A stretch of DNA of 64,000 bases from Candidatus Omnitrophota bacterium (GTDB lineage: Bacteria > Omnitrophota > Gorgyraeia > Ghiorseimicrobiales > Ghiorseimicrobiaceae). The notes below the pieces were generated by a model. That model was given only the letters and a program-made list of their open reading frames with translations. It searched no databases and had not been told where the DNA came from. Positions 9,001 through 63,000 of the stretch are shown here, piece after piece. Location: NCBI GenBank assembly GCA_030681595.1, contig JAUXSB010000033.1:12223-76222 (forward strand), read 5' to 3'. The position numbers and the translations under genes are program-made. Position 1 is the first letter of the stretch. Each line of letters opens with the position of its first letter.

Positions 9001-12000
9001 ATTCTTCTTAAATTCGCATAAAGTTTTCTTGTAAAAGGCGGGACATTCTCATCGTTAATATCAAAAAATATTAAGGATTCCTGCTTTTTAATTTCGTTTT
9101 CTAATAGTTTAAGGATATATGCATCATCATTTATGAATTTATCCGCCTGCGCCTTATTTAGAATTTTTTCAATTTGTTCTACAACATGCTTTAGCTTATT
9201 AACATTGGCTAAAATTATTGTTAATATATTTTCACGTGAAACATAATAGCCGGACAAATCTCCTTTTTTAATCTTTATTGCCCGGAGGCTATCTTCAAAG
9301 GCGCCCATATAACGAGGTAATCTATCTCTGATTAAATTTTTTATATTCTCATTGGTAATTCTGCCGTCAAATTCGACTATAGGTGAGGCGGCGGGTTCTC
9401 TTTTTCCTTCAACCTCATGTGCACTGCGGGAGTGCACACGGTTTATGCCTTCTGAATTCACCGGCGAAGCGGCGAAATGCTTTTCTTCGCTCGGAATAAA
9501 TAGCATAGAGTAGCCGCTATCCTGCTTAAAAATAAGCACTGCGGCAGAACCAGAAACAAGGACCCACCAGCCACGGAAGGAATCTTGTCCTGTATTAATT
9601 GCTCTCTGCCGCAGTGAAATATCCGAATTTGAAAGCGTTTTCTTATTTCCTAAAATAAAAATGAAGGGATAAATAACTTCTGCCGCGCTGATAAACGAGG
9701 CGGAAGAAGGAAGGATAAAGCTATAACTTGTAACTAATTTTTGCGGCGGGCTGTGCTCGGATAAAGAAAACCATCCAATCAGTTGATATATTGCCCCGGC
9801 GCCGGGAAATCCCCCACCAGCCACGGAGAGGTAGACTTCCCTAAAGAACGAAGCGCCGGAGACAAACGTATTTTTTAATGGAGAAGAATTACCTGTTTTA
9901 TCCCCCAAAAGCCTATTCTTATACTCATTTTCAAAGCCGGAATAATCATCATCGCAAGAACAATCTTCTCCGGCATCGAGGTCTTCTTCTGACAAGATGT
10001 CATCATATACATTAGTTTTAAATAACGGCTTAACAGCCTTCTTTTTTTCTACGCCGTTAATCTGCTTAAAGATTTGCTCCCTATACTCTTTTTTTAACTG
10101 GCATCCGACAAGATAAAACTTTATAATCTCATCTCGCTTTTTTTCTTTCAGAAACCTAATAATCTTTTCTTGTTGTTCTGCGGTTAAGATCTTTGAAACA
10201 GCTAATTCAAATACAGAGTACTTAGGTTCATATCTTTTCTTTAAATGTGCCTTAAATTTTATTAATCCGTTCTCAAGGGCAATCTGATACTGCGTAAACC
10301 TGTAAAGCCCGAACTGATATATAAGTTTATCCCTGCCAAAAATTATATTATCTTTATTTAACCCTAATCTATATTTTAGAATTTCGCGCTCTGTTTCATT
10401 TAAAGCATCTAAACTATCAAGGCCCCTGGCTAACTTGCCCTTAATTACGATAAACTCTTGGGCGCATACCCGGATAAAACCATCTATAACGTTATCAATG
10501 ATGCGCGGCGTAAGATTAAAAAACTTTTTCTTCTCTAATGCGGCAATCAGCTTCTCATGCCTATAGCCGTTTCTTATCCCTTCCTCAATAAACCTTAAAC
10601 GCAAAAGTTGCTCGTTGCGCTTAGCTATGCCTTCCATGTCATCTTGCCTAACGCTCCGGGAAAAAATAGGCAGCCTTTCTATATACAACTTCATCAATCT
10701 GTCTAGCTCAATGGCAGGAATGACCCCATAGATAAGCACATTTGTAATTACCTTTTTCTCAGCAATAGATATTTCCCTTATATCGCGAACCTGCTTCTCA
10801 TTAGAACGCTCCTCAATATAAGCCTTTAACTTATTATGGGCGTTTAAGGTTGGATTAACTTTTAAAATCCTAAGCAGGCCTTTTTCTATTCTGCGTATCC
10901 TATCACGCAACTCATGCTTTAGAGGGATTGAACGCGGCATTTTACTAAAAAACCTTGCTAAGTCATTTCTGACTAATTCTATATCCTCGCCAGATACGGT
11001 ATTTTCTTTAATATATAACTCTAACAAGATATTTACCTCCTGGTAATCTAAGCCCAAAAGGTTAACCAGTACGTCTTTTATGCTAGAGGCAAAATAATCA
11101 GAGTCTATCTTTATTTTTCCTTCGAATAAATCATTAAGTAAATAATAGTATTCTTCATAATCATACGACGCAAGCAAAATGGTTGGTATTTCTATAGAAC
11201 AGATATTATTCTTTAGGCCCCAGGCAATGCGTTTTAACGCTTCTTCAGCCGCATCTCTTCTGCCGATAATATCGTATCTCTCTGGGTGTTTTATGCCTAA
11301 TCCCTGCGGCCCTAATAAGGCATACAGCACCTCTTTATGGCTAGAGCGATGGTGCCCTATGCTGACAATCCGTAGTAAAATATGCTCAATACTCATTGTT
11401 AAATCATCCGCATTTATTTCGTAATGTTTAAAATAGTTTAAAATACTCAACTTAAACCAGAAGATAAACTGTTCAATATAATTATCAAGGTTGTCCAATG
11501 ATTTTCTGCGCTTTAAGAATTTAAGGGTGCGGGATAATTCATGTTTTATGTATTTTCTACCTGTATGGACAGCGATGGAATTATCTTTAATTATCGCTGA
11601 GCTGGAAGAGCTATGTTTGATATCAAAATCCCTGCCTTCCCAGCCGGGTTTGGTGTACCAGTAGAAGGTGAAACGTTCCGCCCAAGAAGGCAGATATGCC
11701 CTAAAGGCGCCTGCTTCATCACTCCATTCCAAGCGGACTCTGCCAAGATTATGCCAATCGCCATCTTCGCTGACTTTGGCAAATTGCACAAAACCAGGGC
11801 CATTAACTTGCACTTCCACCTGCTCAGTATCCGGATTAATCTCAATCGAATTAGCTTCGTATTCGGGAAAGGCCCAAGCCTTAGTCTTCTCTTGCGTCTT
11901 TATATTTCTGAAGAAATTAATATTTGCGCCAAAATCTACACCTGCCATCTGACTAATTTCTTCGCTGGCTTCATAGAGATTTAAAACTTGGCGGCTGTTT

Positions 12001-18000: not shown

Positions 18001-21000
18001 GTAGCTTTTTCTGCCTTATCAGTAGACGGCCTACCCAATGCCGCATCCAATAAATCATCAAGTGTGGCATCTATGGGCATGCGCGCGCGCCAGTTGGGAT
18101 GCGTTGAACCCGGCGCGGGGTCATTAACCATACCTTCCTTACCCTGCATAAGGATATCGGATAAAGAAAGAACGGCTATCCTTGCCGGAGACTGATAAAC
18201 CTTAAGTAATATGTCGCGAAGAATTATTTCAACTGCCGAGCCTTTCGCCGTAGAATCATTATAAAGCCAGCTTAAAACCGCTTCGCGCTTATCCGGCTCC
18301 AATTCCTGCCACCACATTAAAAGCGTCCGCGAATCATGCAGGCCGAATGTGGCATAGGCATTTTCTTTATGATTAGGGAAGAAATAAGGATTAGCCGGAT
18401 TCCAAGGGGTAGCCCCAAAAACTCCGGGCAGATAATTCATTACCCCTAATTCTTCGAGAATCGGCGGCACAAAATCCGGTACTGCGCCTAATGCCTCGGT
18501 AATCATCGCGGCATTATTTTCTTTGGCTGTTGCAAGGAGAACTCTTAGCGTTTCCTTGCCCGGAGAAAGCTTAAAGAATCCTGCCCTTAAGCCGTCCGCG
18601 GGCTTGGGTGATTTTTGCGGGTCATCCGGAAAAAGGTACTTCATCATCTTATGCATATGGAATATCTTAAAGTGCTCCTGCAGCTCAGTAGATAAATCGG
18701 AAACCGCGATAAAATCCCAAACAGGTTGGCCTTTGAATACAGCCTTCTCAACCACAAAAGGAATCCTAAACCAACTATTCGGCTCTTTCTCGCTTTGGGC
18801 TTCTCTGGCAATCAATATCATATTATCCGGCCTTAAATTTCCTTCTTCATCAAATATATTGGTGCGCACATCTGCTAATCCGCGATAATTCTTAAGAACT
18901 AAAATCATCGCTGTATAAACTTTTTCTGCCAACTCAAGCCGCCTGTCAGGATAAACCATTCCTTCTACTATCGCCGCTTCTACCATATCCCAAAGGTTTA
19001 ACTTCTCTAAAGTCATTTCATCATCAACATCTTCTGTGAATAAAAACGCGCGGAAAAACCCTAGGGCATGGTCTAACCTTCTATAACTGACTTTATCTAA
19101 CTGGTATCCAAAACGCGCCTGCCAGAAACGAATAGTTTTTATATATTCCCAAAGATACGGGAAGAATTGCCAGTATTGGCCGTTGTCGCTAAAGGCATCG
19201 GGCGGTACCCCTTGCGAGAAACGACGCTTAAAATCAGGAGCACGTAATCCGAATACCTCTGGTGTAATCCAAAGGTCAGCGCCTTCGACGGCAAAAGGCA
19301 CGTCGTCCATAATATCTACGCCTTTATCTTTTCCGCATTTGATTGCCTCGCTCCATTGAGAATCGAGAATCCACTGGAGGAATATTTGGTAGGAAATTTC
19401 TTCTTGGTGTTCTTTAAGTGTGGCTTCTAATGCCTCTTTCTTTCTTAGCCGTAAATCCATCGGCCACCTGCGCCAATCCCAGCCATTGGGAATTTCAGAA
19501 CCGTATTTCTGCTTAAGAATTAGATAAAGTATGTGGTCAAAAATCCATTCTTTATTCTTACGCGCGTATTCACCCATCGACTGCTTAAGCGCGCTATTTT
19601 CCGAATATTTCCTAAACTCTTGCCAAACCATACGCAGTGCCAGATATTTAATCTCTCTGGCAAGGCTATAATTAACTAACTCCTCTTTACGCGCGTATTC
19701 TATTTTTTCTCGGATTAACTCAAGATAACGCTCTGCCTCTTTAGAGGGGATTAATTTTAACAATTTTTCAATGCTGATATAAAGCGGCTCTTTAAGCTTT
19801 GTGCTTGCCACTGAATACGGTGAATCGTTATAACTTGATATAATCAGCGGCAGCACCTGCACGATTCTCTGCCCCCAAGCCTTGGCAAGCTCAATTGCGG
19901 TAAATAGCGAACCCATATCGCCTATGCCTAAATCATTTTTGCTTCGTAAATAGGATAACGGGCCAAAGAAGCCGTCGATTTTCTTATTCAGCGGCGAGGT
20001 GGAGGTTTGGATTTTTTCTCCGGCGGGGCCAGAGGAAAAAATTAAGATATCGCCAAGGGCAATATCAAGCACAAAAATATTATTTTGGAAAATTGCGACA
20101 TTCATCGGCCTTTGTAAAATTCCTTCTCCAACCGTTCCTATTAATTTTCCTTCTGAATTGAATTTTACAACATGGCTAATCCCTTCAATGCAAGTATATA
20201 TATTCTTTTGTTTATCCGGCTCCATATCTAAAATAGCGCCCTGTGCCTTAATAACCAGCCTGCCTTCATCATCACCCTGCTTATGATACGAAAAAACCTC
20301 ACCCGAAGCATAACCCGCATAAATACCGCCTTCAATATCGGCAGTTACGGATACGGCTACTCCCTGCATTATATTTATAGCACTTCTAACTATACTGCTG
20401 TCGTTATCGTAAATATTTACTTTATTACCCTTATCATCCAAGATATAAATGAAATCATGGTTATCTACATAAATATCGCTTAATGAATCCGCCCCAGCGC
20501 CAAACATAGACAGGAATTCGCCTGTATTCCTAAAGAAAACTAACCATCCATTGCTTGCCGCTACCAAGATATCGGTAAACGGTTTTTTCGTTTCAAGATA
20601 TTTATAGATTAAAGACTTACTTAAAACACCTATTCCTTCTATCTCGGATAGCCCAAGGTTTCTTATTCCCGATTCAAGAAATTGCGCGCTGACTTCCTGC
20701 TTAACCTGCCTGCCGGTATTAATATCAAAGATAATTAATCCTTGAGCGCCATCCAAAACATAAACCTCCCCTTTATATACGGCCATTGCCGCGGGTTTAA
20801 TTATCTGCCTTCTTCCGTTTTGCTCACCAAGAATCCCTCTAAATTCAAAATTATTCCAAATAATAGGCAACTGATTATTATCCTCCGCTGGAGAAGAGAC
20901 AGGCTTATCTTTATTTTGCGCCGCAGGTAAAGAAGAAATTTGAATTTGCTCATAGAATATATAGTCCTTAAGCGTTAACGGCGTAAAGTATTCCTCGTGC

Positions 21001-24000
21001 CTATAGAACCAATCAACGCCGATTAAGTAAGGCCCGTACGCATTAGACCACTTGGGGATCCCGCCATACTTTAAGATTTTCTTCACTAAATCTCGCGCTG
21101 GCCCTTCGACATACTTATTAATTTTTGCATCGCCGTTCAACAATAATTTTTGTGATTTTTCAAAATCGCCACCGGTTTTAAATATAATTCTAAACTTGCC
21201 ATCAATGGCCTCTAACTCATCGAAACTCCCCCAATAATTCGACACCGCGATAGTGCCTGGAAAAACCTTCTTTATTAATGGCAATTGAGAATCCCAGTCT
21301 CTATCGAGCCTGCGCATTAATCTATCTGTAGTCTTCTCTAATATATTAGTGATACGCTTTATCCGTTCCACTTCCATCGGCGAGGCTGATTTTTGCAATA
21401 CATAGAACTGAAACGGCTCACCGTTGAAAATATCACGCTCGGTCGTATTTAAAACCCTAAAACCGTAATCTTTAAAATCATGGCTATCAAGTAAAACGGG
21501 GGTTGCGCCGGTAACAAATATAAAGCCGTTTCTTTTTATCGTCTCCCCGACTTTCTTAAATAATCCTAGCGCCTCTTTCTTAGAAGACACAACTTGCCAA
21601 TTAAGAAATCTTACCAAGCTAAGGTCAAATTCAGATTCATATCTAACGGCTAAATCACCTGCATCATAATTACTAAGCACGCGCGTATCCAAGCCCGCTT
21701 TTTTAAAATTTTTGGCGGATTTGGCGTACATATTGATTGAATAGTCATTGCCATAGAGATCTACTGCATGGTTATATCTTTCATAAACAGAAAGCAGCAC
21801 TTCCGCAGTAGAACAAGCCGGATCGATAATTTTTATCGTCCTTCCTTTTTTCATTTCACTGCCAAAGATGCTTGCAATCCATTTATTTATGCCATGGGTT
21901 ATCGAAGGATTTTCTTTAAGGAGATCATCCATTGCAATTACATCCCATTCATCACGGTTAAACGCTGGCTGAATATCCGTATTCTTAGATATCAACTCGT
22001 ATTCTGTTTTTGAATTTACTAAGAAAGCGCGTAACTCTGGCCTATCGTGATGCTCAAGCATTATCCTGCCTAAATTAGGGACAATAATCGAATCCATATA
22101 CCGTGTACCGGCATGGCGCTTTATTATTATCGTTAGGCCTTTAAAGGGCGCTTCGAAATAAAGATTTAATGCCCTGGGCAGCGCATTAGTTATTTTTCTT
22201 CCGGCCTTTAATTTATTCATGAAACGCTGCCAAGACAAATTAAATTCCTCGCTATCAGCATCTATATTTTTCTCCATAAATTTCATCGGCGAGGTGGCAG
22301 CAGTTTCTTCAATATTCTTCTTAATATATTCAATCCTCTCCCTTGATGAAGGGTGATATTTTAATCTCGAAAACGGCGTTATCTCCATTTTCCCTGCTTT
22401 CATCGCCATTTCGCGCAAGCGCGGAAGATTATCTATGGCGCTTATTGCATCATCAATAGAAAAACCCAATTGAATCGTTAATCGGGTTGCGCTCAAATCC
22501 ATTTCGTGCTCCATCGCGCGCCCTTTTTCCTGCAAACTAACCTTCTCCTTTTCTTCTAATTGTTCAACTATACAATATATAAGGTCGATAATAAGTACTC
22601 TGTATTTATCGTTATTTTTGACATGGAAAACCTCATGAGCCAATAGAAAAACAAGCTCTCCCTTCTTTACCGTGCCATTGGCATATTGTTCAACCAGCCA
22701 TTTAAGTAATAATATTTCCCCTGTTGACACATAAAAACCAATCAAAGCCACGGATGTTTCTATAAAATCTAAGGCTGGGATAACAGAAACGCGCGCTAAG
22801 GACAATATGGAATTAAACATCTCCCTGATATCATTTTCTAAATCCTTAGAGCTTTCTTTTAAAGGTGAGGCAGTAGCGCAAAATTGGCGCATCGCCTTAT
22901 AGGTTTGTTTAATAAACCGCCTGCGGGATTCGGGTGTTTTAGTTTTAAAATGGGAATGAATAGCAACGAAAAGATTGTCGAAGCAGCAACCGGGGGACCC
23001 TTGAGCTATATAGCCATGGGTAAGAGAACTTCTTGTTACAACGGTTAATGTTAGCCTAAATTCCGGCGGGCCTGCCCGAATGAAGTCAGGCGGGCCTGCC
23101 CGAATGAAGTCAGGCGGGCCTGCCCGAATGAAGTCAGGCGGGCCTGTCTTAAATCGCTGCAATTCTTCAATCCATTCCTTGAGGAATCCTCTATATTCAT
23201 CAGAATACCTTCCCTTCATCTCCTTAATTATTCTATAGTTCCTTCCGGAGGAGAATACTTCAAATTTAGCCAGTATTGATTCTTGTCCGTATTCAGCGAC
23301 AGCTTTTTTATCGGCATCTTTCGGAAGCTTTCCATGCCCAACAGGACTGCTTGCCCAATCGGAATAGGCCAAATACTGAATAATTGGGTTTAACGGCCTA
23401 TTTTTCCCCAGCGGCGAGGCGGCATGTTTGGTTAACCGGTTATCCTGTTGACCGGTTGTCCGGTTAAAATCAAAATAGTCTTTTAACTGGCGAACCGGCA
23501 AACTGGCTAACTGGCAAACCGATAACACCGGCGAGGCGGAGATTTCTTTCTTGCTCCCCAACAAAATTTCTTTTATTGCCGCATCCTCCAATAAATCACC
23601 TTTAAGCTGAACGATAATTTCCTGATTTTCTTTGGCGCGGCTTACAAAAGACAAGGTATCACCATTTATGGGTGAACCTGAGGAGCGCCCCCCTTCCTCG
23701 CCTGTTTCCTCTGCCTCATCAGCATATATTTTGGCTTTTTCGTAATAGTGAAACGCGTTGATAATATCTTCGCTTGCGGGGGAATCTTTTCGCCAAAATC
23801 TGGCTTCTAATATTCTTGCCCGCAACGTAAAGAAGAGGCTGAGGTTACTGCGGCTTTCTTGAGTCAGTTGATAAAAACTGTCTATCTGGCGGGCATAATA
23901 GTTAAAAGTTTCTTTCTCCAGTAGTTCCGCTAAAGCTACCTCTTCAGGATAAGTGTATAGTAATACCTCCGTGTATTTTAACGCCAACCCTGTCTTACCT

Positions 24001-33000: not shown

Positions 33001-36000
33001 ATCAATTGGTCAGCCTTACTTTTATAGACTCCTCTTAAGTTTTCGCTGACTACGCCCCAAATATCCCGTCCGTATTTGGTAAGAAATTTTTTTATAATTA
33101 AAATGGCCCTTGGCTTAGCGCGCCTTCCTATCGCCTTATTCACAAGGGGCGAAGCTGATTTTCCTGTAAGGATATTCTCTATTTGCGTAAACAGGGCATC
33201 TACCTTCTCGAAATTTATTTCGCTATTATTACTTAATAAATCCCTTGCTATGCCTAAATTAACATAATAATCCTGCGGAGATTTCTTGATCAAATAATGG
33301 ATATAGTTCAAAAATCCTTGGTCGCCTTTAAGCAGCCTCCTAAATGAAACCGCCGCCTTCTCAAGGATATCTTTACTTCTGTTATCATTTTTATATCTAT
33401 TTATGCTCTTAAGAATTAGCTGCTTCTTTACCAGCCTTTCCTTTAATAATTTCCAAAGTTCTGTAAAGGCGAATACATCCTCTTTGGCGCGAGCAAATTT
33501 AGCCAAGACATCAATGGCATATCGCTGATAAAAACTTTCTTTGGGGATAAATGCGCAAAGTGCCTTTATTAATTTCTTATATTCATCTTCACTTACTATG
33601 ATATTATTTTCTCTTATAGATTTTATTAAATCATGAGCCTCATCTAATAGTTTCTTTCTTTCGCGTAGCGAGACAATTAGGGGATTTATATCATTTAATT
33701 CCCGTGTTAGGCCAAAAATCTTTTTGGTTATTTCAGATTTTTGGTCTGGAATGTTGTTAGATCCATAATAAACATCTTCGATATGCAAACGAATTTCGTT
33801 GCCTTCTTCGATAACCCTAATTTTATAAGGCGGCATTATTTCGCCTTTTAAACGCGCCTCAAAATAAGTGCGCCGCAAAACACTCCGATAAATCGCCCAC
33901 AGTTCTTTGAAAGTTTTTTCATTTAAGCTCGCATCATTGGGATAATACTCTAGCAGCCACTGGCGTACCTTGATATCGCACTGAGGTTCCCATCCGGGCT
34001 TATGGTCGGCATAATAAACAGTTGCCTTTTCTATATTTTTCCCGGCTAACTTTTCCTCTAATCCCTTTATAATTAGTTTTCTTAAATGCCGCTTTACGCC
34101 GATAAACTGAAAATCAATAGGAGAAGAGCCGCCTTTAGCATTAACGTAAAAAATTAGAGCGTAAAGAGAGACGGTGCCCACCGGCTTTATCCCGTTAGAG
34201 AGCGATTGTACCCCACCAGCCACGGAAGGTAATACAATCTCTTTATGCAGCTTCTCTCTAACGGGACACGCCCGCCAGAACGACGTAGTCGGGCTGGCCT
34301 GTCCGCCAAAGTATTGATGGCGGAGAGAGGTCAACCATCTGTTTAAATCCTCCTTACGCCCTAATTTTAATAGAACATAATTATATGAAATTACATCCGG
34401 CCCGGCGCGCAGTTTACCTGATTCAACCAAAGCTCTACCCCTCTGCCAAGCAATGATACCTACGGCGACATAACCTAGCGGCCCGCCTGACTCCCGCCCG
34501 ACCCGCCAGACCGAAGTCGGGCTGGACGACATTCTGTCGGGCGCGGTCATTCGGGCAGGCGAAGCAGAAATGCCTGAATTAGTTTTAAGCGCTAAAGCTG
34601 TCTTTAAAACTTTCTTTTGGTTTTCTTTTTCAAAACCTCTATACAGGAAGAAATCTTTTATATACCACGCTACCATTTCATAATCTGCTGTGCCTTCTGT
34701 ATCCCTAAAAGACCCATCAATAGCACTTGTCAACAGCTTAATATAATCTTGGCCTGGCCAATGCTTACTCAATACGTAAACTAATATTTGAGTGGATGAA
34801 TTAAATAGTTTTCCTATTTTTTCATCGAGGTCATTAACTGCCTTTTCATCTCTAGGCCAGGCAAGCTTTTTTAACATATCCCTGCTATGTAGATAATAAT
34901 CTATTGCCTTACCCCAAACCCCTCTCTTTTGATAGATCTCTCCCAGATATGCTAAAATCTGGGCGGTCATCCTCTTATCGCCGACTCTTTCTCCTCCGGG
35001 AGCTACTATATATAAACTTTCCATAAACGCTTCTTCCGCCTTATCTAACTTATTTCTCTTCAATTCAAGGATGCCTCTGTTAAAATAGCTTTTTGCAAGG
35101 CCTATCCTATCCCAGCCATGTTTTCTCAATTTAAGGCTCAGGTCAGAATATATTTCTGCCGTATCATAATCTGTGAGGTTTGTGAAATGCGCCGCAAGAC
35201 GGTTATAGACCTTTGCCAGCATACGATTATCGCCTATTATTTTAAATATGTCTTCGCTTATCTTTAAGCTCCTTTCGTAGTCTTCTCTTGCCTGCTCGCT
35301 CTGCCCTAATCTATCGTATAAGTCTCCCCTGCGGAAATAGCTGTTTGCCAACCCCTCTAAGTTGACGACATCTCTGATATCTTTTGAATGAATGGTAAGT
35401 TTTTTTCTTATATCTATTGCTTTATTAAAGGCTCTCTCGGCTTTATCAAACCAGTAATGCCTTTTCATCACCCTTTCCTTCTCTCCCTTTACCATATAGA
35501 CAACGCCTAAATAATGCTGAGAAAGGACAAGGCCAAAATTTGCCTCTATATAAATAAGGTTGAGGTCTGTGCGGCTGATTATACTTTCCCAGAAATAATT
35601 ACTTAACATCAGGTAATCTTCCGCTTCATCTAACCTCTCTATATCCAGATAAAAACTGCCAAGTGTACGTAGTGTCTTAGCAATCTCTAACATATCTCTA
35701 ATATCTATTGTTATCGAGTGATAACGGACTATTGAATTTAAGGCATCTTTTACCGCAGAGCCCTGAAGCTTAGACTCCACATCAGCAATATTAATTGCCA
35801 ATTCCAAACTATCCAGCAGCCAACTTTCCGCCCCTTTAATCTCCTTTGCGTCTATTATGTTCCCCCTCAGCCACTCAATGATGCCTTTATACTTCTTGTT
35901 AGTACGCTCAAGCCTGCGGAATCTATGCCTCTGAGCAATCTCAAGAGCCCCTGTAAATTTTATGTTTTCTTCACCCATGATACCCATAATATTTACATCT

Positions 36001-48000: not shown

Positions 48001-51000
48001 ATGCGCCGCGCGAAACCACCCAGACTCGTGAAAGGATTACGCGTATGATGGTGCAAACCATCAAGAACGCGCCGGCCGGCAAGGATATACCGGGTTTTCT
48101 CCGCTTCTTTCCTTACTTCCTCATTGCCATCCTCAAGGGATATCCTCAAAAACCATGACGCCTTCTTATTGCTGATAGCGCGTAAATCTATCGCCATCTG
48201 CCTCCTTATCTCTGGGTCTTGCGACCTTATTAATTCAAGTATTAAATCCCCGGCTAATTTATGAGCGGGATAATAATAAGCAAGTATGACTATAGCCGAA
48301 TGTTTTTCTAGCTGGTCTTTGGTCAGATACCTGTCTTTCTGCTTATGTAATAATTCGTTAATATTCTCCTCGCTACGCGCTTTTACTATCAACCTTACTA
48401 AATCATCAGGCCCTTCGGACGCCCATTTATAATCCTCCTCTTTATTTCCCTTATGGCTAAAATATATAGTAAATTCAAAAAATCCTTCGTTCTCTTCCGG
48501 GATATCCGTCGGAATAATTTGCAGCTCGATTCTAAAGATATTACCCTTTTCATATATATGTTGCTTGTAACTTATGCCCGGTTTCCTGCCATACACCTTC
48601 CTATTGTCCTTGTAGATATTCACTATTTCTATATTTTCCCTGACAACTTTTCTACTTCTATGCGGCCGCACGCCTACCTCAATATAGCCATCACTAATAA
48701 ATCCAAGAAACTCCTCCATGCTTACGTCTCTGTCGAATTTTACCGTAGCATAAGCAAAGAAAGCATCGCCTACTATTACCTCATTCGTATCTTCCCTATC
48801 ATGAGCAATATCCCAGGCACCGACTATTTTCGGTAACTCGTTAGCATTATTGTTCTTAATCGGCGAAGAAACTTTGCCAACAGATATTTTCGCTGTAACT
48901 CCCTGCTGCTCTTCGACTGATATATTATTACCCCTTAGAGAGCGATTGTATCCCGCCAGCCACGCCCCGTTAGAAAGTGACGAATACCCACCACCAGCCA
49001 CGGAAGGTAAGATATCGCCTTTAAAAATTGTCTTTCTAACGGGGCACGGAAGGTAATACAATCTCTTTATGTAGCTTCTCTCTAAAGGGTTATTTAAATT
49101 TAACGGACTGGAGTTAGCCTTTGAATTTATCTTTATAGCAGCGGGCTTGCGACTTTCCCAATATATCTCGGATAAGCCCAAAAGCCACCAATACCTCTTC
49201 TTATAAACTCTATGGGAAGTAAACCCGGCTGAATGTAAAGCTTTACCAACAAAAGTGCGCTTGAGTAAATTAGCGTCTATAATAAGCCTTTGCTTAAGAG
49301 CGCGTTTTAAAAATTTCTTTGTCCTATCCTCTCTTATCATCATGCGAATCGCAATATCATCACGCAGCCTTGCGAATAATAATTTTAGGGCGCAAGCAAC
49401 CAAATTAAGCCCTTTAGGATAGTTCTCGGTAGTATCCGATGCCACTTCCAAGACAACCTCTTTATTTTTCAACATGAAATCCATTCCTATTTGCGCAAAG
49501 AGATTACTGTTTTCGTCAACGATGTCAATAACTACGCCCTTTCCTGATAATATGCCTTTCCCTAATAAAGAATAAACCTGCAGTTGGTACATCTTCTGGT
49601 CGTTAGCCTTAAGCCACTGGCGGTTTAGGCCTTCTGATATTTCTTTTATTTGCTTAGCAATAGGCGTGAGTTCTTTTCCGGCATTATCCTTTTCGTAAAC
49701 AGAAATTATGCTCTCTAACAACTGCCCCTGCTCGTCTTTGCTAAGCTTCATTATATCCGGCGCAAATATCTTAATTATGCCGGTCTCGGGGTCAATGTAC
49801 GCTGTATCACGCCCAATTCGTAAATCCTCCCTCTCGGCCTTATAAAATTCGGGAATAAGCGCTTCTTTCTCTAATTTATCGTTCGGTATCGGCGAACTCA
49901 TTTTTCTATCTTTTACCTGCCTGAATTGTTCCGGGGCCGTAAAACGCATCTTGGTGCTAAAGTAAGTGCCAAAATAACCAAAAGGTATTTCTATATTCAA
50001 CAAATTAATGACTTCATAAAACCTCTCTACTAAAGATGCCGCTTCCCTAATCTGATGCGTGCTTGAGACACCCTCAAAAATCAGCACTTTTTTACGGCTT
50101 ATAATAAAGCTGGAAATAATTTTGGCCAACTTCTTTGTTGAGACTACCCAATCCCCTTCAATATGTATTACTACATCCCTCTTTTCTGCCCTTAATCCTA
50201 ATCCGCCTCTCTCCATATAAGAGGACAACTCTGTTTTTCCAACACCCTGGTCACCATCTATGACTAAAATTACTTTCTTATCGCTTCTCTCGATAAAAGA
50301 ACGAATCTTCCTAATTCCTTTGTCTACCGGCATCATAACCCCGGATTTTCTCTTTGGCAGCCGGGAAATCTGTTCTCGTAAGAATATAGCGTTTCTTAAT
50401 CTATTAATATGCTCTTCTTTGTAAAGCGGCGAGTTGGAGGGGCCTTTGCCGATTTGAACAACCCATTCTTTTTCGCTCATAAGAAGAAGGGACGTAAAAG
50501 GTAGGACAGGCGTAGCATAAGTATCACCTTTGGAATACACGGTATCGATAATCACTCCTTTAACGCTGTCAGAACCAGGATTGCATATACATAAGAGTAT
50601 CTTTGAAATTTTCTTTTCTTTCGCTAACCAATTCACAACCTTAGCTGCGGAAATTTCACCAATATACACTTTTCCCTGTTTTTTCTCTCCCCTTGCGCCC
50701 AAGAAAGGTCCTTCGTATTTAAAACCTTTCTTGAATTCAGAAACGGTAATGAGTGTGGCTTTGACTTCTCGAACAAAAACAGCAGAACCTGGATTGTTCA
50801 AAAGAATATATTCCATCTGATCAATACTCTGTTGGGGCTCTAATTCAAAAATAAGAATTGGGAATTTGGTTAATAATATAGGGGAGGAGACGATGACTGA
50901 TGGCTGATGACCTGGTAACTTTTCTTCCACCGGCGAACTGCTTAATGCCTCTTCAGCGAAAGATATTTTTTCCCGGATTGAGGAAAGGCTTGCTTCTGTT

Positions 51001-54000
51001 TCTTTTCTTTGTTCGAATAGGCTGATCTTCAGGCCGGTTTGGGACCCAATCAAGTCGGATTCCTGTTGGCGAATGTCACTGAGTTTAGCTTCTAGTTTAG
51101 CTTCCTTGGCTTTGAGCCAAGCGATAATTTTTTTCCCTTCCCACACCGCCCTACCAAAATATAAATCAGCTAAAATTGCAATATAAAAGTCGGTTATCTG
51201 CTCATCAGTAAAACCTAATTTCTTTAAATCTCTAACTGCTTTAAGGCGGAGATCAAAGTTTGGATCAACTAATTTCTTAATTAATCTCGATACTCGAGTT
51301 ATTCTAAAAGAAATCCATATTCCCAACAGCTCTGCGATTGCGATACTAATATACGAATGCAAGGTTCTTACCAGCGCACCGGGAAAACCGGAAGACCCAT
51401 TCTTTCCTGCAAGTTTTGAGCTATGCGGATTAGAAGTTGAGTTATTATCGATATTATTCTTCTTATCGGGAGACTTGCTTGCCATTGAGGCAAAAACATT
51501 AAGGGTTAATAAAAACATCCAGACGAGATTAAATAGATTGCTGGTAGCAGCATAAGAATAATATATGGAATTTGCCGTCAAAGCGGATATATAAGTTAAT
51601 AAACCTATTTTTGGCCTTGACATAAAAAATCTTTCCGCGAAGAAAAATCCTTTTGGCATCATTTTTCTAAAAAACTCATAGCGGCCGTAGATAAATCCAG
51701 CTATGACTGCCGTGGCACTAAAAAGATGTATAGGCATCATATTGAATACCAATACAAACATTATCCCCGGTTTATAAAAATTTATTTCTTTATTAAATAA
51801 CTTGGCGGCAACCAAACTTGCTATTCCGCTTACGGCAAATGCTAATAGAGCATTAACAGCACTTTTGGTTAGAGCATAACCAATTAGAACATAGTCAAAA
51901 GGATAACCGCCAAGGCTATATGCAATAGTTAAAACCGCAAGTATCCCTAATACAATCTTCGTTTTTGTTGATATTTCTTGCGTCGTTATGTTATCATCTT
52001 GCGTCTTTTTCGCCATGGCGGGCCTGCCCGACTTATTTGTGGCGGGTGAGCTATTAGAGATAGTCTTATTAGCGATAATGAACTTCACAAAATTAGAAAG
52101 GATTTTTAATTGCGTATTCTCTGAAAGCTCAAAGAAATAAGGGTGGAGGATTAATGTTTCGCTAGAAATAAAACGGTTAAATGCGGCAGTATAGGGCAGA
52201 TTGGTTTTGAAATCTTTAATTAATTCGTATCCTTCGGTAAGGATTTTAACATAGAAGTAAAAATCAGGCGGCGCGCGGATTTCCTGACTTAATAAATGGG
52301 CTTGTTTCGTTAATATTTCCTGCCATTTAAGATAAAGCTTGCCTTCTGCCAAGGTTACTTTAATATCTTTGCCTAAGCTTATCTTCACAAATGCTATGAA
52401 GCCGCTTCCCTCATTAGAAATTATTCGTTTATGCTCCGCTTCGAGAACAGGCAAATTTGAAAACGGTAAACCAAGCGGGCTGGCGGATTGGCCCAATGCC
52501 TCAGCAGTAATAAAGTCCCGCCTTTGCCTCTTAGCAGCAGATGACAAGTCGTTTTTGTCCACCGGCGAGCTGGATGAAGATGGATACGAGGCATTATCTT
52601 TAGGTATTACTCTGGACGCCTCAATGGTTTTTAATATCCTATTCCCAACGATAATATTAACCAACAACACACCCCACGATACAAACACTATATCTCTTAT
52701 ACCCGTCGGCATCGCGATGTTTTCGGTCATAAAAAATAGTATAGCCCCCAAAGAAGCCGCAGACGCAATCAGTGCTGCCGTGCCCAATTTCAGCATCACA
52801 TCAACGATGGCTTCTAATTTCCGCACCCTATCACCTAACGCCGCCGGAGAGTTAGATTTTAATTCCTCTTCGCTTTGATTATCTTTTGTATATTTTACGG
52901 TGCTGTTTGCTTTTATCGCTTTTATTGTCTCTAGTGTATGCTTTACAAACGAAACCATGGCGGCAATAAACACTACCGACTCCGGTATGCCAAGCGAAAG
53001 AGGGCTGGCGGATTGGCCCAGGAAATCAAATGTCTTCCTGCCAACCAATTCCCAGATAAACTGTGACTTGGATTCCTTAAAACCTTTATAATCAACAACG
53101 TTATCAACTATAAGCATAATGCTCCTGTAAAGGGGGATACCGTATTTACCGGATGGCGCCTCATTCATGACATGCCTAAACAGACCCCCATAATCTTCAT
53201 AATCAAGATTAAACTCGGAGATATTTCCTTTTGCAATCACCGGAATAATAATATAACCTTCCTTTGAATCCGCCTGCTTAGCCAAAGCGGATAATCTTAC
53301 GATAAGCTCCTCAGAGTTCATTGTTACATCTAACTCAAAATAAGGAGTAATTACTTTGGGTAAGAGATTACGGGTTGCTTGGGCAAACTCTTTAGGATGG
53401 CTGACCGCAACAAGAGAGCTTTTACAATAAGGATTACGGTGCTCATCTAGTATTTGAATAACTTCGCCTGCCTGCTGCCTAATCTTTTCTTCTTGCTCTG
53501 GAGTAATAGGCGAAGAATTTCCTTGAATAGAATCGAACGGATTATAATATCCCTTGCCTTCTTTTTCCCACTGCCTAATATCATTCGTGATATTTTGAAT
53601 AATCGGAGAAGATAAACTAAAATCTTTTTCGCCTACCTTTTTATTAATGCCATAATATTTTATATTGATCCCTCCCTTATTATCTACAGTTACGATTTTT
53701 CTAAGCAAAGAGGTGCTTGGTTTTTCAAAATTTTGTTCAGGAATCCCATTTTGATCTTGTAAGTATTTCTGAATATCTTCTACTTTCCATCTTCTTAAAG
53801 GAGCTGTATCTTTCGGTGTGGGAGTCATTGGATCGTCAGAATAAACAATCATAATTATCCAATCTTTCCCTCTAATATCCTTAAATGAACTTTCCATAAA
53901 ATCTTTCTCTTTTTGCTTATCTTCATCTTCATGCCATCCATAAATATGAACCACTTTCGTTTTGCCTGTTTTACTATTGTAAGCTATTGTTGCTAAACAA

Positions 54001-57000: not shown

Positions 57001-60000
57001 AAAAGGTTAAATTCTTTGGCATCTTCATCTGAAAACATCGTCGTTGCCCCTGATTTAATCTTCGCAAAAGGAGTCCTTAAGTAAAAAGGCATGGAAAGAT
57101 CTTCCGTGATTAACTTAGCCTCGCCTTTCCTCGCATAAGTAATTTCATAAGTTTGATATATACTGGCATACTCACGCTCTACATCTATAACCTCCAAATC
57201 TAATACCTCATAGCCTTGTTCTTTTAAACGAGCTCTCTCCTGACTTAAATAGGTGCATTCAACCGTCGTGGTCAGGATGCCCTGACCGGTTAATTCTTTA
57301 TACTTTTGGATATCCAATCCAGCATACCTTAATTCTAAATTGATGGCATATCTGAGGGTTTCAAGGGTGTCGCTTATATCTACTATATCTAAAATAACCT
57401 CTCTTAACCTCTTGTCGCTGTAACCTTTGTCCCTCGTGGATTTCATTAAGGCCGGTATCAAACGCGCTGTCTCTAAAACCGGAACAAACGAACTTTCATC
57501 TGTAAGGAACTTAATAATGGCCGGCCTGCCTTCTTCCAGTGTTCGGTAGGCGTTTATACCCTCTTTGTCTAATATAGATGCCAACGCCTCAAGGAATTCC
57601 AAATATAAATTATATTTACCTACATCTCCTTTCGCCTTTTCTATAGCTATTGGAACACCCCACTTTAACGTAGAACAGAAAGGAACTAATTTCTCTTTTA
57701 ATCTCAAGCCGAGGTTTAAAGCCGGCACAAGATAAAGATCCTCACTCCCCGTCTGTTGTAATAATGCGGGAACAGCGACTTTTCTTGCGTATTCAAGATC
57801 ATCATCCGGGTTCAATTTCTTTAACAACTGCTCAATTAATTGTCCACTTATTTCACTCACCGGCGAGCTGGGGAGAGATTCTGGCCCTTCTTTGCTTTGA
57901 TTATTTTTAGCGTCTTTCGCCGCACCTTTTGCTTTTATCGCTTTTATTGTCTCTAAAGTATGTTTTATAAGCGAAACTATGGCGGCACTAAGCACGGCTA
58001 ATTCCGGCATACTAAGCGAAAGAGGGCTGGCGGATTGGCCCGATGCCTCAATCGTCTTATTTATCAAAGTATTTCCTTCTTGGATATCCTCCGGTAAGTC
58101 GGAGGTAGTATCGTCAAAAAGAGAACCGCCACCCTTTTCAACATCATACAGTCCTTCATATTCGAAATAATCCTCTTCGCTTAACGGCGTAAAATAGGAC
58201 TTGCGAGAAACAATATCTCCCCACTTTACTCCATTGAGATAAGGCCCGTACGCATCAGACCAATAGGTTTCATGTTTGGGGTTTCTATTAATTCTATCCA
58301 CTAATACTTGAGCCGGGCCTTCAATTAAACCTCTCTCTACGGGAGACTGATGTGGATCCCCCCACTCATCTCCGGAAAAACAATATATTCTTTTTTCAAT
58401 ATCAATGGCTAATTCATTATCTACCATTATAATATCTTTAACGTCGGTCGCCCTCACAGTTCCGGGGAAAATTTTACTTATTTCGTGAACAACCGGAATC
58501 CCGGCCAATATTCTTCTTTGCTCTTTAAGCCTGGCGGTAATAAAAGCCCGCCTTTGCCTCTTAGCAGCAGATGACAAGTAGTTTTTATTCCCCGGCGAGC
58601 TGGAGCGTATCCACTCCTTAGGCCTAAAACTAACTCTGACTATAGGGTTAATTAAAGCGTTGTTCCTTCTCTGCATATTCTTTATTCCAGACTCATAGGC
58701 TGCAGCCATAAGTTTTATACCTATGCCATGGTCGCTGGCTAACGATACTGCTCTATCAAAAGGCTTACCTTCAAAAAGGATGTCTAAAAATTCTTTACTT
58801 GGGGACTTATCATCTTCTAACTTTGGTGTTTCTTCTAGTATTGGCTCGCTATTTTCAAAAATAAGGTTGCTTTTAAACGTCCTCATATAGCGGTGGTTTT
58901 CCCCTCCTAATGCCTTTGGTTTTTTGTGCAGTTGAGGATCAAAAATCCTGGCTTCTCTCGTATATCTAATATCTAAAGCTTTATGAAGAACAACCCTGAC
59001 ATCCTCAATCTTTACAAGCCCTGAACGAAGCTTCATTTCTTGAGAAGGATGACGCATTGTAACGCCTTCATGTTTTAGGCTCAAATGAACAGTAGTTATC
59101 AAGTTACCTTTGCTAAAAAAGTCTATAACAACATCTGTATTCACATCATAGAGGTCTTTTACGGGACGATATTGATTAATTTCTTTATCAGCAATACGAT
59201 GCACTATGCCATTGCTATCCCTTTTGAAAGGAAAGGCTTCATATAAATCAAGAGGTGTTTTCCAAACAGTATTTACATCCGCATAATCAATGATAATGTC
59301 TGAATACCTTAACAACCAAGGAATAATATCAAAAAAGTGGTAGCCGGAATGAGCCATTTTGCCGCCCCAACGAGAATAGAGCGCATTGTATATCCCATAA
59401 CTGCCGGGCCACTGGTCTTTGCTGAATATAGGGTATCCATCATTTACCTGATATACAATACTCTCTACTGGAATCTTCTTGTTGTTTAAACGCGCAGAGG
59501 AAATGTGGCCTGCCATTCTTTTAAATATATCTCCGTAGCGCTTCTGCGTAGCAAGCATAAAAAGTACGCCCTTAGGACACTTACCACGCAGCTCTTTATA
59601 ATCTTTATATATTTTTCGGGCAGCAGCTATATCTGTGTTGCATTTCTTTGGAAGAGTCAGCGGCTTATCAACTAATACGTGAAAATTATTTTTTAGCGCC
59701 CATTTCACATATGTTTTATGCGTATCCGCGCCTGTAGAAACCACAATCGCCTTTTTAGCATAGGACTGTAACCTTTCTTTCGCCTCATCTTTCCACCGCG
59801 TTGATATAGGTATCTCTATTTGCTCCCGGTTCACACCAATACTTCTATAAAATTCCTCCAGTTCTGCCTCGTGTTTTTTATACCAACTTTCATTTTCACG
59901 CTTTCTGCCTTGCTTTTTATTATAATATTTAAGGTCAACAACTCCCACTAACCTACTTTTTCCTTCTCGCTGATATTCCCTTATGGTCTGTAAATGCGCT

Positions 60001-63000
60001 GATAACGCATATCTTCCTGCCCCGATAAGAACGATTCCTACTTCCTCCGCCGGCCTGCCCGACTTCTTTGTGGCGGGCGAGCTGACAGGCGTAAGTTTTT
60101 TCCTTGCAATTGCTGATATACGCTCACCTCTCCCTTCCTTCTCAATCTTTTCCTTATCACGTTTTATTCGTATAAAATCAGCATCGCTGATTCTTCCATG
60201 CCTATGCTCACGCTCTACTTTCTTAAGATTAACTTCTGTTTCTAAAGCCACAACTTCGAATCCATTGCGTCTCAATAAATTACTTAATGAATCCGGGGAA
60301 AAGAAGTAGAAATGGCCAATCATATGATCATAGAACTCTCCCTTCTGCAATTCAGCCACTTCGCTATCCAAATTAGGAGATCTGGTTATATAAATATATC
60401 CACCTTCTCTTAATACACGGTGGGCTTGTTTAATCTCGGCATTAGGATCAATCAAGTGCTCCATAACGGCAAAATAGCACAACAAGTCAAATTCTTTATC
60501 CTTGCGATCTTGTAAGGTTCCTACAAAGCCATCAACTCTTTTTTCCTTTAGGCTTGCTACGGCAGTAGGCGAGGGATCGATGCCTATAGTTTCAATTCCT
60601 TTTTTTGCTAAAAGATTAATGTAATCCGATACTGTACCGCATCCTACATCTGCCGCTCGTTTTATTTGATGATTACCTCCTATTATGGAAAATAAATGAT
60701 TTAATTCTGATTGCGCTCTTTCTAATCTCCTCTGTGACGCGGTATAGCCGCTAGTCCAATTCCTAACCCACATTTCGCTAACGTACTTTAGATGACAACC
60801 TTGACACTCTACAATAATATGAAGCTCAGAAGCTCTATATCCTACTCCTTTAACGGCGGTCTTTCCTTTGGGGACCTCATTACTACCAACGATAGGGTGT
60901 ACTTTGAGAAATTCTTTCTGTCGGGACGAACCGCAAACACAACACCTGTCAGTCTTTATTATATCCAGATATTTGCGTCCCTCTGTATCCCGCATTGCAT
61001 CAGTTTCATTCCTTATGCCTTTATAAAGATAGCTGATGAATTCATGGTAGAGAATTTCTACAGGCAGGCTAAAGAAATACGGATGGATATAAACAGTTTT
61101 TGATGAGATATCGCAGGCGGCGACATTGCCGCGGGTAAAGATTTTTTCGGTGCTGACAATTACGGTAACCTCCGGCGGGCCGCGGGCTATCTGGTTAAGT
61201 TTGGCTAATTGCGCTTTTAATACTCCTTCCCAATTTTCATAGAACCTGCCTTTTTCTAGAACCAAATCATAACCGTCTTTGGTTAACAGGGCTTTTGCTT
61301 TAGTTATTGTGCCTGTGCCGTATTGGGATATGGCCTTGTCATGCTCTTCTTCAGGCACAGGTAAATCATAGGACAGACTTGAAGCAAGGGGGCTGGAGGA
61401 TTCTTTTATTGTATTGAGGAGGCTGGCGGGGGTCAGTCCGGAGATAAATCCAGTCGCCAGCCCATCCCCAATAGCCCCTATCTCTCCTGCCACGCCCGCC
61501 AGACCGAAGTCGGGCTGGGAAGAAGTTAGCAGCTTGACATTTGATAAAATAAGCCCCGTTAGAGAGCGGAAAATACGCACCACCAGCCACGGAAGGTAAC
61601 GTATAACCGTTATAATCATCTCTAACGGGGCATTGAGATTTACTGGCGAAGATGGATTATTTTCTTTTGAATCCGCAGAATGCTCAAAAGTAATAAAACT
61701 TAGTTCTCTACCTGTTATATTTAACCTTGTCAAATCCCCATAGCGCAATCCTTTTTCTTCGGCATCCAAGAAATATTTCAATATCGGCCCAAATCCGGAA
61801 TGCCGAACATTATCTTGGCCGCGTTCATTCCTAGCCACAAGAATATCAGAATTTTTGGCTATGCTGTCAAAAGCTGAACCCAGATAAATAGGAATATAAA
61901 CGCGCTCTTTGCGAGTTAGCAACAGAAAATCGTCAAGGTTGGAATCCCCTATTGCTAAAACAGCGCCTTCGGATTGCAAAGTATCCAATTCTTCCCTAAT
62001 AACATCCCGTTTACCTCTCAGGACAACCTCTGTAAAGCTTGTACCTCCAAAGAATAAATATTTATTTTCTTTATCAAATTCGCTGTTCCGTCCAAATAAG
62101 ATTCGCTGGGTTAATGCTGGGATATCCGAACCGGAAATCGGTGTGTTCTCTTTATAGAAAACAAGAACTAATGCGCTTCCAAAAGGCCAAAATTGGATAC
62201 CTTTAATATGTGTAATATGGGTGGCTATTTTTTCTAATCTCTTCAATTCTTCGTTAAGGTTCCCGACCATATCAGTAGACCATATCTCTTTTGCTTGAGG
62301 CCCCGCCAAGAAAGTTTCCAAAGACATATTTTTATGCAGTGCGCAGAAAACAGATATCATGGCTCGTCCGATTTCTATTTGGATATTTTCCGGGATCCCC
62401 TTCTTTTCATCCTCAGATATCCTTTCCTCTCCTTGCTCATTAAAAATAACAACCCCCTTATCGTTAACGTAATATATTTTAAGGTTCTGTATATGTTCCA
62501 TCTTACCTAAAGCTTTTAAAGTCTTTCTGACAGGAATCGCAATACGTTTCTGAAGAGATTTTCTCCCGAAATTCATTCCTGCATATTCAGCCAAATAAGG
62601 ACTTCCGCTGATCGAGATGAATCTCTTATCGCTCAGTAAACACCGCAGGGTTTGTTCTAAGTTCAACCCGCTCACTGGGGTAATATTATCCGTCATGGTG
62701 TAATCAACATCACTAACAACGGCGGCTATTTTAACTTTCTCATCTTGGATCGGACTGTTGCCGATATTCTTTGTAACCACAAAGACAATCCAGCCACGGT
62801 CTTTTTCAAACTCAATCCGTGTTTCTTTACTGATCCTCTTGCCTTCTCTATCAAGCAGGAATATCTGTTCACCTTCCACCTCATAACTATGGACTTTGGA
62901 CAGAACGTCATTCAACCAATACAAATATTCATCCTTGTTAGAGAGCTTATAAATTTCAACGCGATCCTGAGTCAAGACAGCCACGCGCCTATGATGGGGA

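Follow-up and report, generated by a model that had tools for sequence, protein, structure and literature searches.

The window analysed here is a stretch of 64,000 nucleotides (nt) from a Candidatus Omnitrophota bacterium (contig JAUXSB010000033.1, positions 12,223 to 76,222), which is read from end to end by a single open reading frame (ORF) of a giant gene on the minus strand. It holds six copies of a family of short GC-rich hairpins, one of which sits intact in the apical loop of another. The family probably consists of mobile elements of ~75-85 nt that carry no gene of their own and lie in frame and in sense orientation within the giant genes of Omnitrophota, members of one subtype (type 1) integrating at the tip of the family's own hairpin.

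The nest occupies 48931-49089 and has the following parts; positions are those of the window, and the sense strand is the minus strand.

48931-48964, minus strand: 3' half (sense strand) of the outer copy D; the plus strand reads CCCCTTAGAGAGCGATTGTATCCCGCCAGCCACG, and the sense start CGTGGCTGGCGGG is the right half of the core
48961-48964: first copy of the insert-flanking CACG (sense CGTG), placed by alignment
48965-49044, minus strand: copy C, the intact inner element, a type-1 hairpin of 80 nt lodged in copy D's apical loop
49045-49048: second copy of the insert-flanking CACG (sense CGTG), placed by alignment
49045-49089, minus strand: 5' half (sense strand) of copy D; the plus strand reads CACGGAAGGTAATACAATCTCTTTATGTAGCTTCTCTCTAAAGGG, and the sense end ...ACCTTCCGTG is the left half of the core

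The original prediction described this locus as an intact family member inserted in frame into another member, and our comparison bears this out. When the joined halves of copy D are aligned pairwise with 34191-34265 (copy A, an uninterrupted member), the only gap is one of four bases, which falls on the second CACG; once a single CACG is taken out, the halves make 75 nt that align without gaps and match copy A at 70 positions. The outer halves are therefore homologous to the uninterrupted element, with CACG on both sides of the insert. Copy A, which is 93% identical to copy D, shows the form that D had before the insertion. The termini of copy C (CCCCGTTAGAAAG/CTTTCTAACGGGG) form a perfect inverted repeat of 13 bp, which the flanking G and C extend to 14 bp, and in pairwise alignment the copy is only ~70-77% identical to copies A and B. 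Its RNA folds at -41.8 kcal/mol (z = -5.8), and the nested pair of D and C folds into a single continuous hairpin of 169 nt (-74.1 kcal/mol, z = -6.9). Insert and repeat together add 80 + 4 = 84 nt, or 28 codons, and the minus-strand frame stays open through the nest and across the entire 64-kb window. Copy C is translated as PVRKTIFKGDILPSVAGGGYSSLSNGA.

A search for further insertions at CACG within family cores was positive, in agreement with the earlier suggestion that the conserved core may be the target. The sense junction ...CCTTCCGTG/CCCCGTT...AACGGGG/CGTGGCTGG..., with slashes marking the insert boundaries, recurs at loci (designated L with a number) from different assemblies.

L015: three successive left junctions 46 nt apart, indicating at least three levels; the right side lies beyond the locus
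L097: one nest
L101: one nest, with CCTG as the left copy of the repeat
L053: a stack of two insertions within a third copy, with a partly decayed repeat
L118: a single nest, detected in the metagenome scan
L120: two nest sites, from the metagenome scan

The metagenome scan, made for nests of any subtype, returned 79 loci, of which only L118 and L120 are real and the other 77 are chance matches in high-GC DNA. The insertion always falls at CCGTG/GCTGG, in the window as elsewhere. Inner copies are always type 1, and the outer copies are type 1 (window, L015, L053), type 2 (L118, L120) or have a type-3-like left arm (L097). Since the outer copies span several subtypes, the target is the shared tip and not the stems. 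At L120, two 80-nt inserts that are 100% identical lie in different outer copies 3.9 kb apart within one open frame; judged from sequence, this is a signature of recent movement, and it gives substance to the transposition-like movement that had been proposed. Older events may be represented by L109, L087, L041 and copy A of the window, which resemble inserts in older, decayed cores; for copy A, the flanks GGCGGGCGTG and ATAAAGCCGGTGGGCAC suggest such an origin.

Clean inserts measure 80 or 83 nt, that is, 84 or 87 nt with the repeat, so that all 7 of 7 are multiples of three, and the host frames of the nests contain no stop. Selection for frame preservation had been read from the window alone. 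The lengths and the open host ORFs agree with it, although within an ORF such selection amounts to a survivorship filter and does not demonstrate a property of the insertion mechanism. A general rule that type-1 copies have a length of 2 modulo 3 was discarded: it holds in 11 of 18, and the ends of stand-alone copies are ambiguous.

The 4-bp duplication stood in part. CGTG flanks both sides of the insert in all clean nests, with one mismatch in L101 and one in L053. The 12 stand-alone type-1 copies have T at -2 in 12, G at -1 in 11, C at +1 in 10 and T at +3 in 9, which supports a short conserved motif YRTG (CGTG, TATG, CATG, TGTG) in the 5' flank and gives a 3' flank of C-N-T. A matching flanking 4-mer occurs in none of the 12, and a generic transposase that makes staggered cuts and 4-bp target-site duplications is therefore not supported. 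The nests fix the inserted 84 nt only up to rotation, and three descriptions fit: an element of 80 nt that duplicates CGTG; one of 82 nt (G...C, with the longer inverted repeat) that duplicates GT, as would result from a 2-bp crossover; or a unit of 84 nt, for example GTG, element and C, that duplicates nothing.

All six copies in the window are in sense orientation on the minus strand. Five are intact according to a covariance model built from 32 family members, and the split copy D is the sixth.

9536-9617, minus strand: copy E, type-2 outer stem (CACTGCGGCAGA/TCTGCCGCAGTG) with the common core; 54.5 bits; third phase, ..DSFRGWWVLV..
9627-9661, minus strand: AT-rich conserved module of 35 nt, immediately 5' of copy E
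9793-9862, minus strand: copy F, divergent, core CTCTCCGTGGCTGGTGG and GC-rich outer stem CTCCGGCGC/GCGCCGGGG; 29.1 bits, E = 2.9e-5
34189-34267, minus strand: copy A, uninterrupted, type 1; 74 bits; read as PVREKLHKEIVLPSVAGGVQSLSNG
48964-49045, minus strand: copy C, the inner copy, in the extent given by the covariance model; 76.8 bits
61553-61631, minus strand: copy B, stand-alone, type 1; 76.6 bits; read as APLEMIITVIRYLPWLVVRIFRSLTG, in another codon phase

On the plus strand the same places score only 20-22 bits; copy C, for instance, drops from 76.8 bits (E = 1.5e-18) on the minus strand to 22.1 bits there. If up to three mismatches are allowed, the window contains the 17-mer core five times, compared with 0.04 expected. 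The copies are 75-85 nt long and have no ORF of their own, the host frame reading through them, and all have outer stems comparable to the terminal repeat of copy C. Their translations differ by phase: ..VLPSVAGG.. in A, C and F, ..YLPWLV.. or ..YLPC..WLAG.. in B and D, and ..SFRGWWV.. in E. Because the copies of the window use all three codon phases, conservation acts at the nucleotide and not at the protein level. Among the 59 in-ORF copies from all sources, phases 0, 1 and 2 of the core are used by 30, 18 and 11.

The invariant core CCTTCCGTGGCTGGTGG forms the top of the hairpin, and the stems below it vary with compensatory changes. On the sense strand every copy takes the same shape in RNA folding (z = -3.6 to -5.8): a GC-rich outer stem specific to the subtype, an asymmetric internal loop, an inner stem that is free in sequence, and the tip ACCUUCC-GUGGCU-GGUGGGG. 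The outer stems of type 1 (CCCCGTTRG.., with the end pair GCCCCGTTRNAAAG ... CTTTNYAACGGGGC), type 2 (GCTGCGG..) and type 3 (GGCYYCGG..) are unrelated to one another. In an alignment of 32 copies, compensatory double changes occur at 18 of the 23 consensus pairs, and 91.7% of the cells are paired, compared with 73.0% in shuffled alignments. The covariation score is 0.561 against 0.216 for shuffles, a value that none of 500 shuffles reached, and it falls to 0.10-0.18 when the partners are slid by 1-3 columns. In the same alignment 17 core positions are invariant, which is partly a consequence of searching with the core. With the two fixed U.G columns excluded, G.T pairs outnumber A.C pairs by 42 to 18 (p = 0.003); the fold is thus favoured on the sense strand.

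The 35-nt module beside copy E, TTTTTATTTTAGRAAATAAGAAAACGSTTTCAAAT, is a small hairpin itself. It is also present at L013 (1148-1182 and 3719-3753) and L010 (4179-4213), with ~94% identity among the three genomes, and lies just 5' of type-2 hairpins or, in L010, before a decayed copy. Type-2 units are therefore probably composites of ~130 nt.

A scan with the core, limited to one genome per species, gave at least 117 loci, and the full hairpin is present at ~50 loci among the matches listed. The matches listed include ~60 structured copies from ~50 metagenome-assembled genomes (MAGs), which are mostly labelled Candidatus Omnitrophota or Omnitrophica, others being labelled 'uncultured Planctomycetales' or unclassified. 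Core matches in high-GC genomes (Streptomyces and others) have no hairpin and were set aside as chance matches, and the core had no match in viral contigs. At 59 of the 68 structured matches listed, no stop interrupts the sense frame over at least 1000 codons (median, the whole 8-kb block), and no antisense frame is open for as long. Seven of the remaining nine are probable chance matches in other phyla. The other two are real and lie outside ORFs, one (L041) between two ordinary genes and one (L097) 45 nt past the stop of an ORF of >2479 amino acids. None of 52 copies is antisense, even though antisense frames account for 38% of the frames without stops at these copies (P about 1e-11); the orientation bias is hence more than a stop-codon filter.

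Some giant genes contain several copies. L004 and L093 are blocks 152001-160000 and 80001-88000 of contig JAKPTF010000035.1, with copies on the same strand, and L019 and L072 are adjacent blocks of CAYHBB010000040.1. All of these 8-kb blocks are fully open, the copies of L004 and L093 are 64-72 kb apart, and each pair of blocks probably represents a single giant gene. L084 (1480-2020) carries a tandem array of seven hairpin units ~75-90 nt apart, which share one codon phase (..SVAG..) and have very different stems.

If the hairpins are mobile elements, as we favour, the nest of the window would have formed when an older member received a type-1 member (CCCCGTT...AACGGGG) in its six-base apical loop, at the point where CCGTG meets GCTGG, an event that would leave CGTG on both sides and add 84 nt. 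Such insertions are site-specific for the tip of the family itself and can be stacked over several levels. As only stop-free events in multiples of three are seen, the element would be translated as a neutral linker peptide whose sequence is set by the phase. The recognised unit may be the folded single strand of the sense strand, given the strand-exclusive orientation, the presence of G.T but few A.C pairs, and the compensatory stems. A recombinase or transposase supplied in trans may bind the conserved tip and join the element ends there.

Several observations weigh against this interpretation. In the 1.2 Mb searched, we found no long unit bounded by type-1 ends and no autonomous partner or enzyme. 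Conservation is highest at the tip instead of the termini, an unusual trait for a MITE (miniature inverted-repeat transposable element). The stand-alone copies lack the matching 4-mer, as described above, and homologue searches yielded no pair of empty and filled sites for a stand-alone copy. A search with 432 amino acids around the nest gave no protein homologues, and thus no orthologous empty site; a search for an element-free allele with the conserved module beside the copy of L083 and L044 gave two matches, neither of them useful; and among the fetched loci only the elements themselves match the window, with no orthologue of it. Finally, orthologous copies outlast their flanks, which points to a constraint imposed by the host on copies in place (on fold and tip) or to homogenisation by gene conversion.

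The clearest case of such conservation is provided by L083 and L044, orthologous giant genes with 57% protein identity over 700 amino acids and an element at the same position. The element DNA is 94% identical, compared with 50-58% for the flanks, and its few differences are mostly non-synonymous and include one compensatory pair (GTCGG/CCGGC versus GTTGG/CCAGC). The element shared by L012 and L110 is 93% identical, and that of L004 and L017 is 72% identical, against 54-67% in the flanks, with many compensatory changes. Because orthologous copies are far better conserved than their flanks, a purely selfish and decaying insert is disfavoured. In several pairs (L083/L044, L012/L110/L078 and L052/L015) homology breaks at the element or within ~50 nt of it, and L044 has an extra segment of ~210 amino acids just upstream of the element that it shares with L083. 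Of 62 homology ends, 5 fall within 90 nt of an element (1.8 expected), a figure that comes from two or three pairs counted twice and is too weak to support a claim of clustering.

This conservation is among the arguments for the best-surviving alternative, in which the hairpin is chiefly a cis-element of the host that serves the expression or maintenance of giant genes, acting as RNA or as non-template DNA with a loop that binds a trans-acting factor, and in which the nests are secondary. Its role might be, for example, in processive transcription, protection of the mRNA or pacing of translation. We regard this as possible but clearly less probable than mobility, with which it is compatible. 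The near-confinement of the family to giant ORFs, always in the sense direction, would be expected of such an element, as would a loop that is invariant across ~50 MAGs among the matches listed while the stems covary, G.U pairs that favour the sense strand, and the co-orientation of both copies outside ORFs (L041, L097) with the neighbouring genes. However, Rfam gave no match at the gathering score in the window, and with a relaxed threshold only a chance-level one (E = 6.5). To our knowledge no trans-acting factor for the hairpin loop has been described, which also counts against a cis-element. An insertion into the loop destroys the putative binding site of the outer copy, yet the nests persist, and hairpins of -35 to -74 kcal/mol within an ORF would be costly to translate.

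The two roles may be combined. The hairpin could be a mobile cis-structure that giant genes require, its loop being read by a dedicated factor that sustains transcription or translation of ORFs of 60-250 kb, or that marks module boundaries for in-frame recombination, while the structure spreads by self-insertion. This is a tentative proposal and somewhat less probable again; if true, the hairpin would be a mobile element with a regulatory or architectural function, particular to the largest known bacterial genes.

The nests might also have formed without a dedicated enzyme, if a fragile hairpin tip underwent break repair, template switching or gene conversion over short homology; the 10-14 nt of homologous core on either side would then let a nest that already exists be copied into further cores. 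The tips of hairpins are known to be fragile, identical short core sequences flank the insert in all nests, and CGTG could act as a microhomology. At L019 (reverse strand, 6440-6580), moreover, a type-1 core is interrupted behind GGCTGG, at a distance of six bases from the usual insertion point, and the ~60 nt in between comprise two other small, unrelated GC hairpins. This split at another position makes the tip a general hotspot, and it seems to receive more than one kind of insert. Still, the first nest of each lineage would require an insertion, the ends of the insert are always exactly type-1 termini, inner and outer subtypes differ in L118 and L120, the inner copy of the window shares only ~70-77% identity with A and B, and the position of the insertion is identical to the nucleotide across eight assemblies. 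We therefore consider enzyme-free nesting improbable.

A repeat of the protein, such as an LPSVAGG peptide in a repetitive giant protein with incidental palindromy, could be suggested by the seven adjacent units of L084 in one phase and by phase 0 being the commonest; the use of all three phases, both in one gene and across genomes, rules the protein motif out, and the nucleotide-level covariation of the stems, the mostly non-synonymous differences between orthologues at 94% DNA identity and the copies outside ORFs leave this account with next to no probability. Chimeric or collapsed palindromes in metagenome assemblies are just as implausible: palindromes are hard for assemblers, and MAGs or metagenomes are the source of all the data, but independent assemblies made in different studies with different assemblers share the junction, and the nests keep a multiple of three within ORFs of several kb to >64 kb that stay open.

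The gene that hosts the nest runs past both ends of the window.

1-64000, minus strand: host giant gene, one ORF of 21,332 codons with no stop

Stops are absent from minus-strand frame 2, compared with 714-2191 in each of the remaining five frames. Pfam domains along the ORF include methyltransferases, several HD domains, GFO_IDH_MocA (a Rossmann oxidoreductase), hexokinase_1/2, HATPase_c, SIR2_2, TPR, GH77 and PHP, with a weak match to an M48 peptidase. A 'multi-enzyme' class has been described among the giant proteins of Omnitrophota (bioRxiv 10.64898/2026.06.07.730766), and the host gene belongs to this class. Its GH77 (4-alpha-glucanotransferase) domain, at ~18075-19958 on the minus strand, has 628 amino acids for 458 profile positions and hence insertions of ~170 amino acids; a hairpin element was considered as their source and is not found there. 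Internal duplications of the gene link 52504-53036 with 57876-58604 (183 nt at 77% and 71 nt at 90% identity, 5.0-6.0 kb apart). Other GC-rich repeats are also present in the window. A second hairpin family is marked by the exact sense 20-mer CCAGCCCGACTTCGGTCTGG at 61499-61518, 35 nt downstream of copy B, and at 34506-34525, ~240 nt upstream of copy A. Related to it is a 24-nt in-frame tandem repeat, GGCAGGCCCGCCTGACTTCATTCG, with ~4 units at 23059-23146. The short motifs GGGCTGGCGGATT and CCGCCGGCGAGCTGGAG recur six and four times, respectively.

Giant genes of tens of thousands of codons are a recent discovery in Omnitrophota, and the publications on them, as far as accessible, do not mention the element. 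The family gives these genes a specific, phylum-wide nucleotide signature that can be read in any phase, is strand-specific, keeps its fold by compensation and is still moving. It offers a tractable case of a gene-less element that integrates site-specifically into a hairpin loop, it can serve as a marker by which giant genes are located and compared in metagenomes, and it connects mobile DNA in a testable way with how giant ORFs grow or are expressed.

Individual traits of the family are known from other systems. Their combination (a tip that stays invariant while the stems covary, an orientation that is strictly sense, near-confinement to giant ORFs and self-insertion that can be stacked) is apparently undescribed, as far as we could find. 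Rickettsia palindromic elements are small palindromes inserted in frame in protein genes and translated as extra segments (PMC10969869). Our family shares this residence in frame within protein-coding genes. However, the Rickettsia elements are ~100-150 bp long, have one conserved peptide per family in a single frame and occur in many ordinary Rickettsia genes, whereas the present copies are 75-85 nt long, use three phases and are almost confined to the giant ORFs of Omnitrophota. We know of no report of an invariant loop over covarying stems, or of self-nesting, among Rickettsia palindromic elements.

Bacterial MITEs (Correia/CREE, ERIC, BOX) are likewise short and non-coding, with terminal inverted repeats and many copies, and the insertion of one member into another is known from plant MITEs. 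In MITEs, however, the termini are conserved and every copy has a target-site duplication; in contrast, our family has an invariant tip, several unrelated subtypes of terminus, stand-alone copies that show no duplication and a strictly strand-specific orientation.

The insertion sequences (IS) IS1397 and ISKpn1 (IS3 family) and IS621 and ISPpu9 (IS110 family) integrate specifically into the hairpins of repetitive extragenic palindromes (REP) and bacterial interspersed mosaic elements (PMC1525189). As in our nests, a mobile element targets a repeated genomic hairpin. The invader is in those cases a full IS with its transposase, distinct from the target, and both lie outside genes; here it is a gene-less member of the target family, and it lies in an ORF. 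REP sequences and REPINs with their RAYT are extragenic, whereas 59 structured copies of the present family are inside long ORFs. REP and REPIN palindromes carry a conserved GTAG or CGTC tag at one end (PMC3733652); the 5' flank of our elements, YRTG, is neither.

The GC clusters of yeast mitochondria, such as GC42, are mobile GC-rich hairpins with an AG target repeat, constrained stems and no known enzyme (PMC4478555). They resemble the present family in being short GC-rich hairpins in AT-richer DNA. They are, however, mostly intergenic, organellar and ~42 nt long, and the loops of GC42 are more variable than the stems, whereas ours are invariant.

In integron attC sites the folded single strand defines the recombination site: its structure is conserved, its sequence is largely free, and use is made of one strand. 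Their conserved boxes are at the base of the fold and not at the tip as here, and they lie 3' of cassettes beside an integrase gene and are untranslated. We considered and rejected an attC identity for the hairpins: the type-1 ends GTTAGAG/CTCTAAC fit RYYYAAC...GTTRRRY at 6/7, and types 2 and 3 (GCTGCGG, GGCTCCGG) do not fit. Derivatives of IS200/IS605 are similar in that they are strand-specific and hairpin-dependent, with a short 5' motif (here YRTG) and no general target duplication. No TnpA was found in our searches. IS200/IS605 elements carry a pair of subterminal hairpins and lack a terminal inverted repeat, whereas the present unit is one hairpin with inverted repeats, and its nests carry CGTG on the right side as well.

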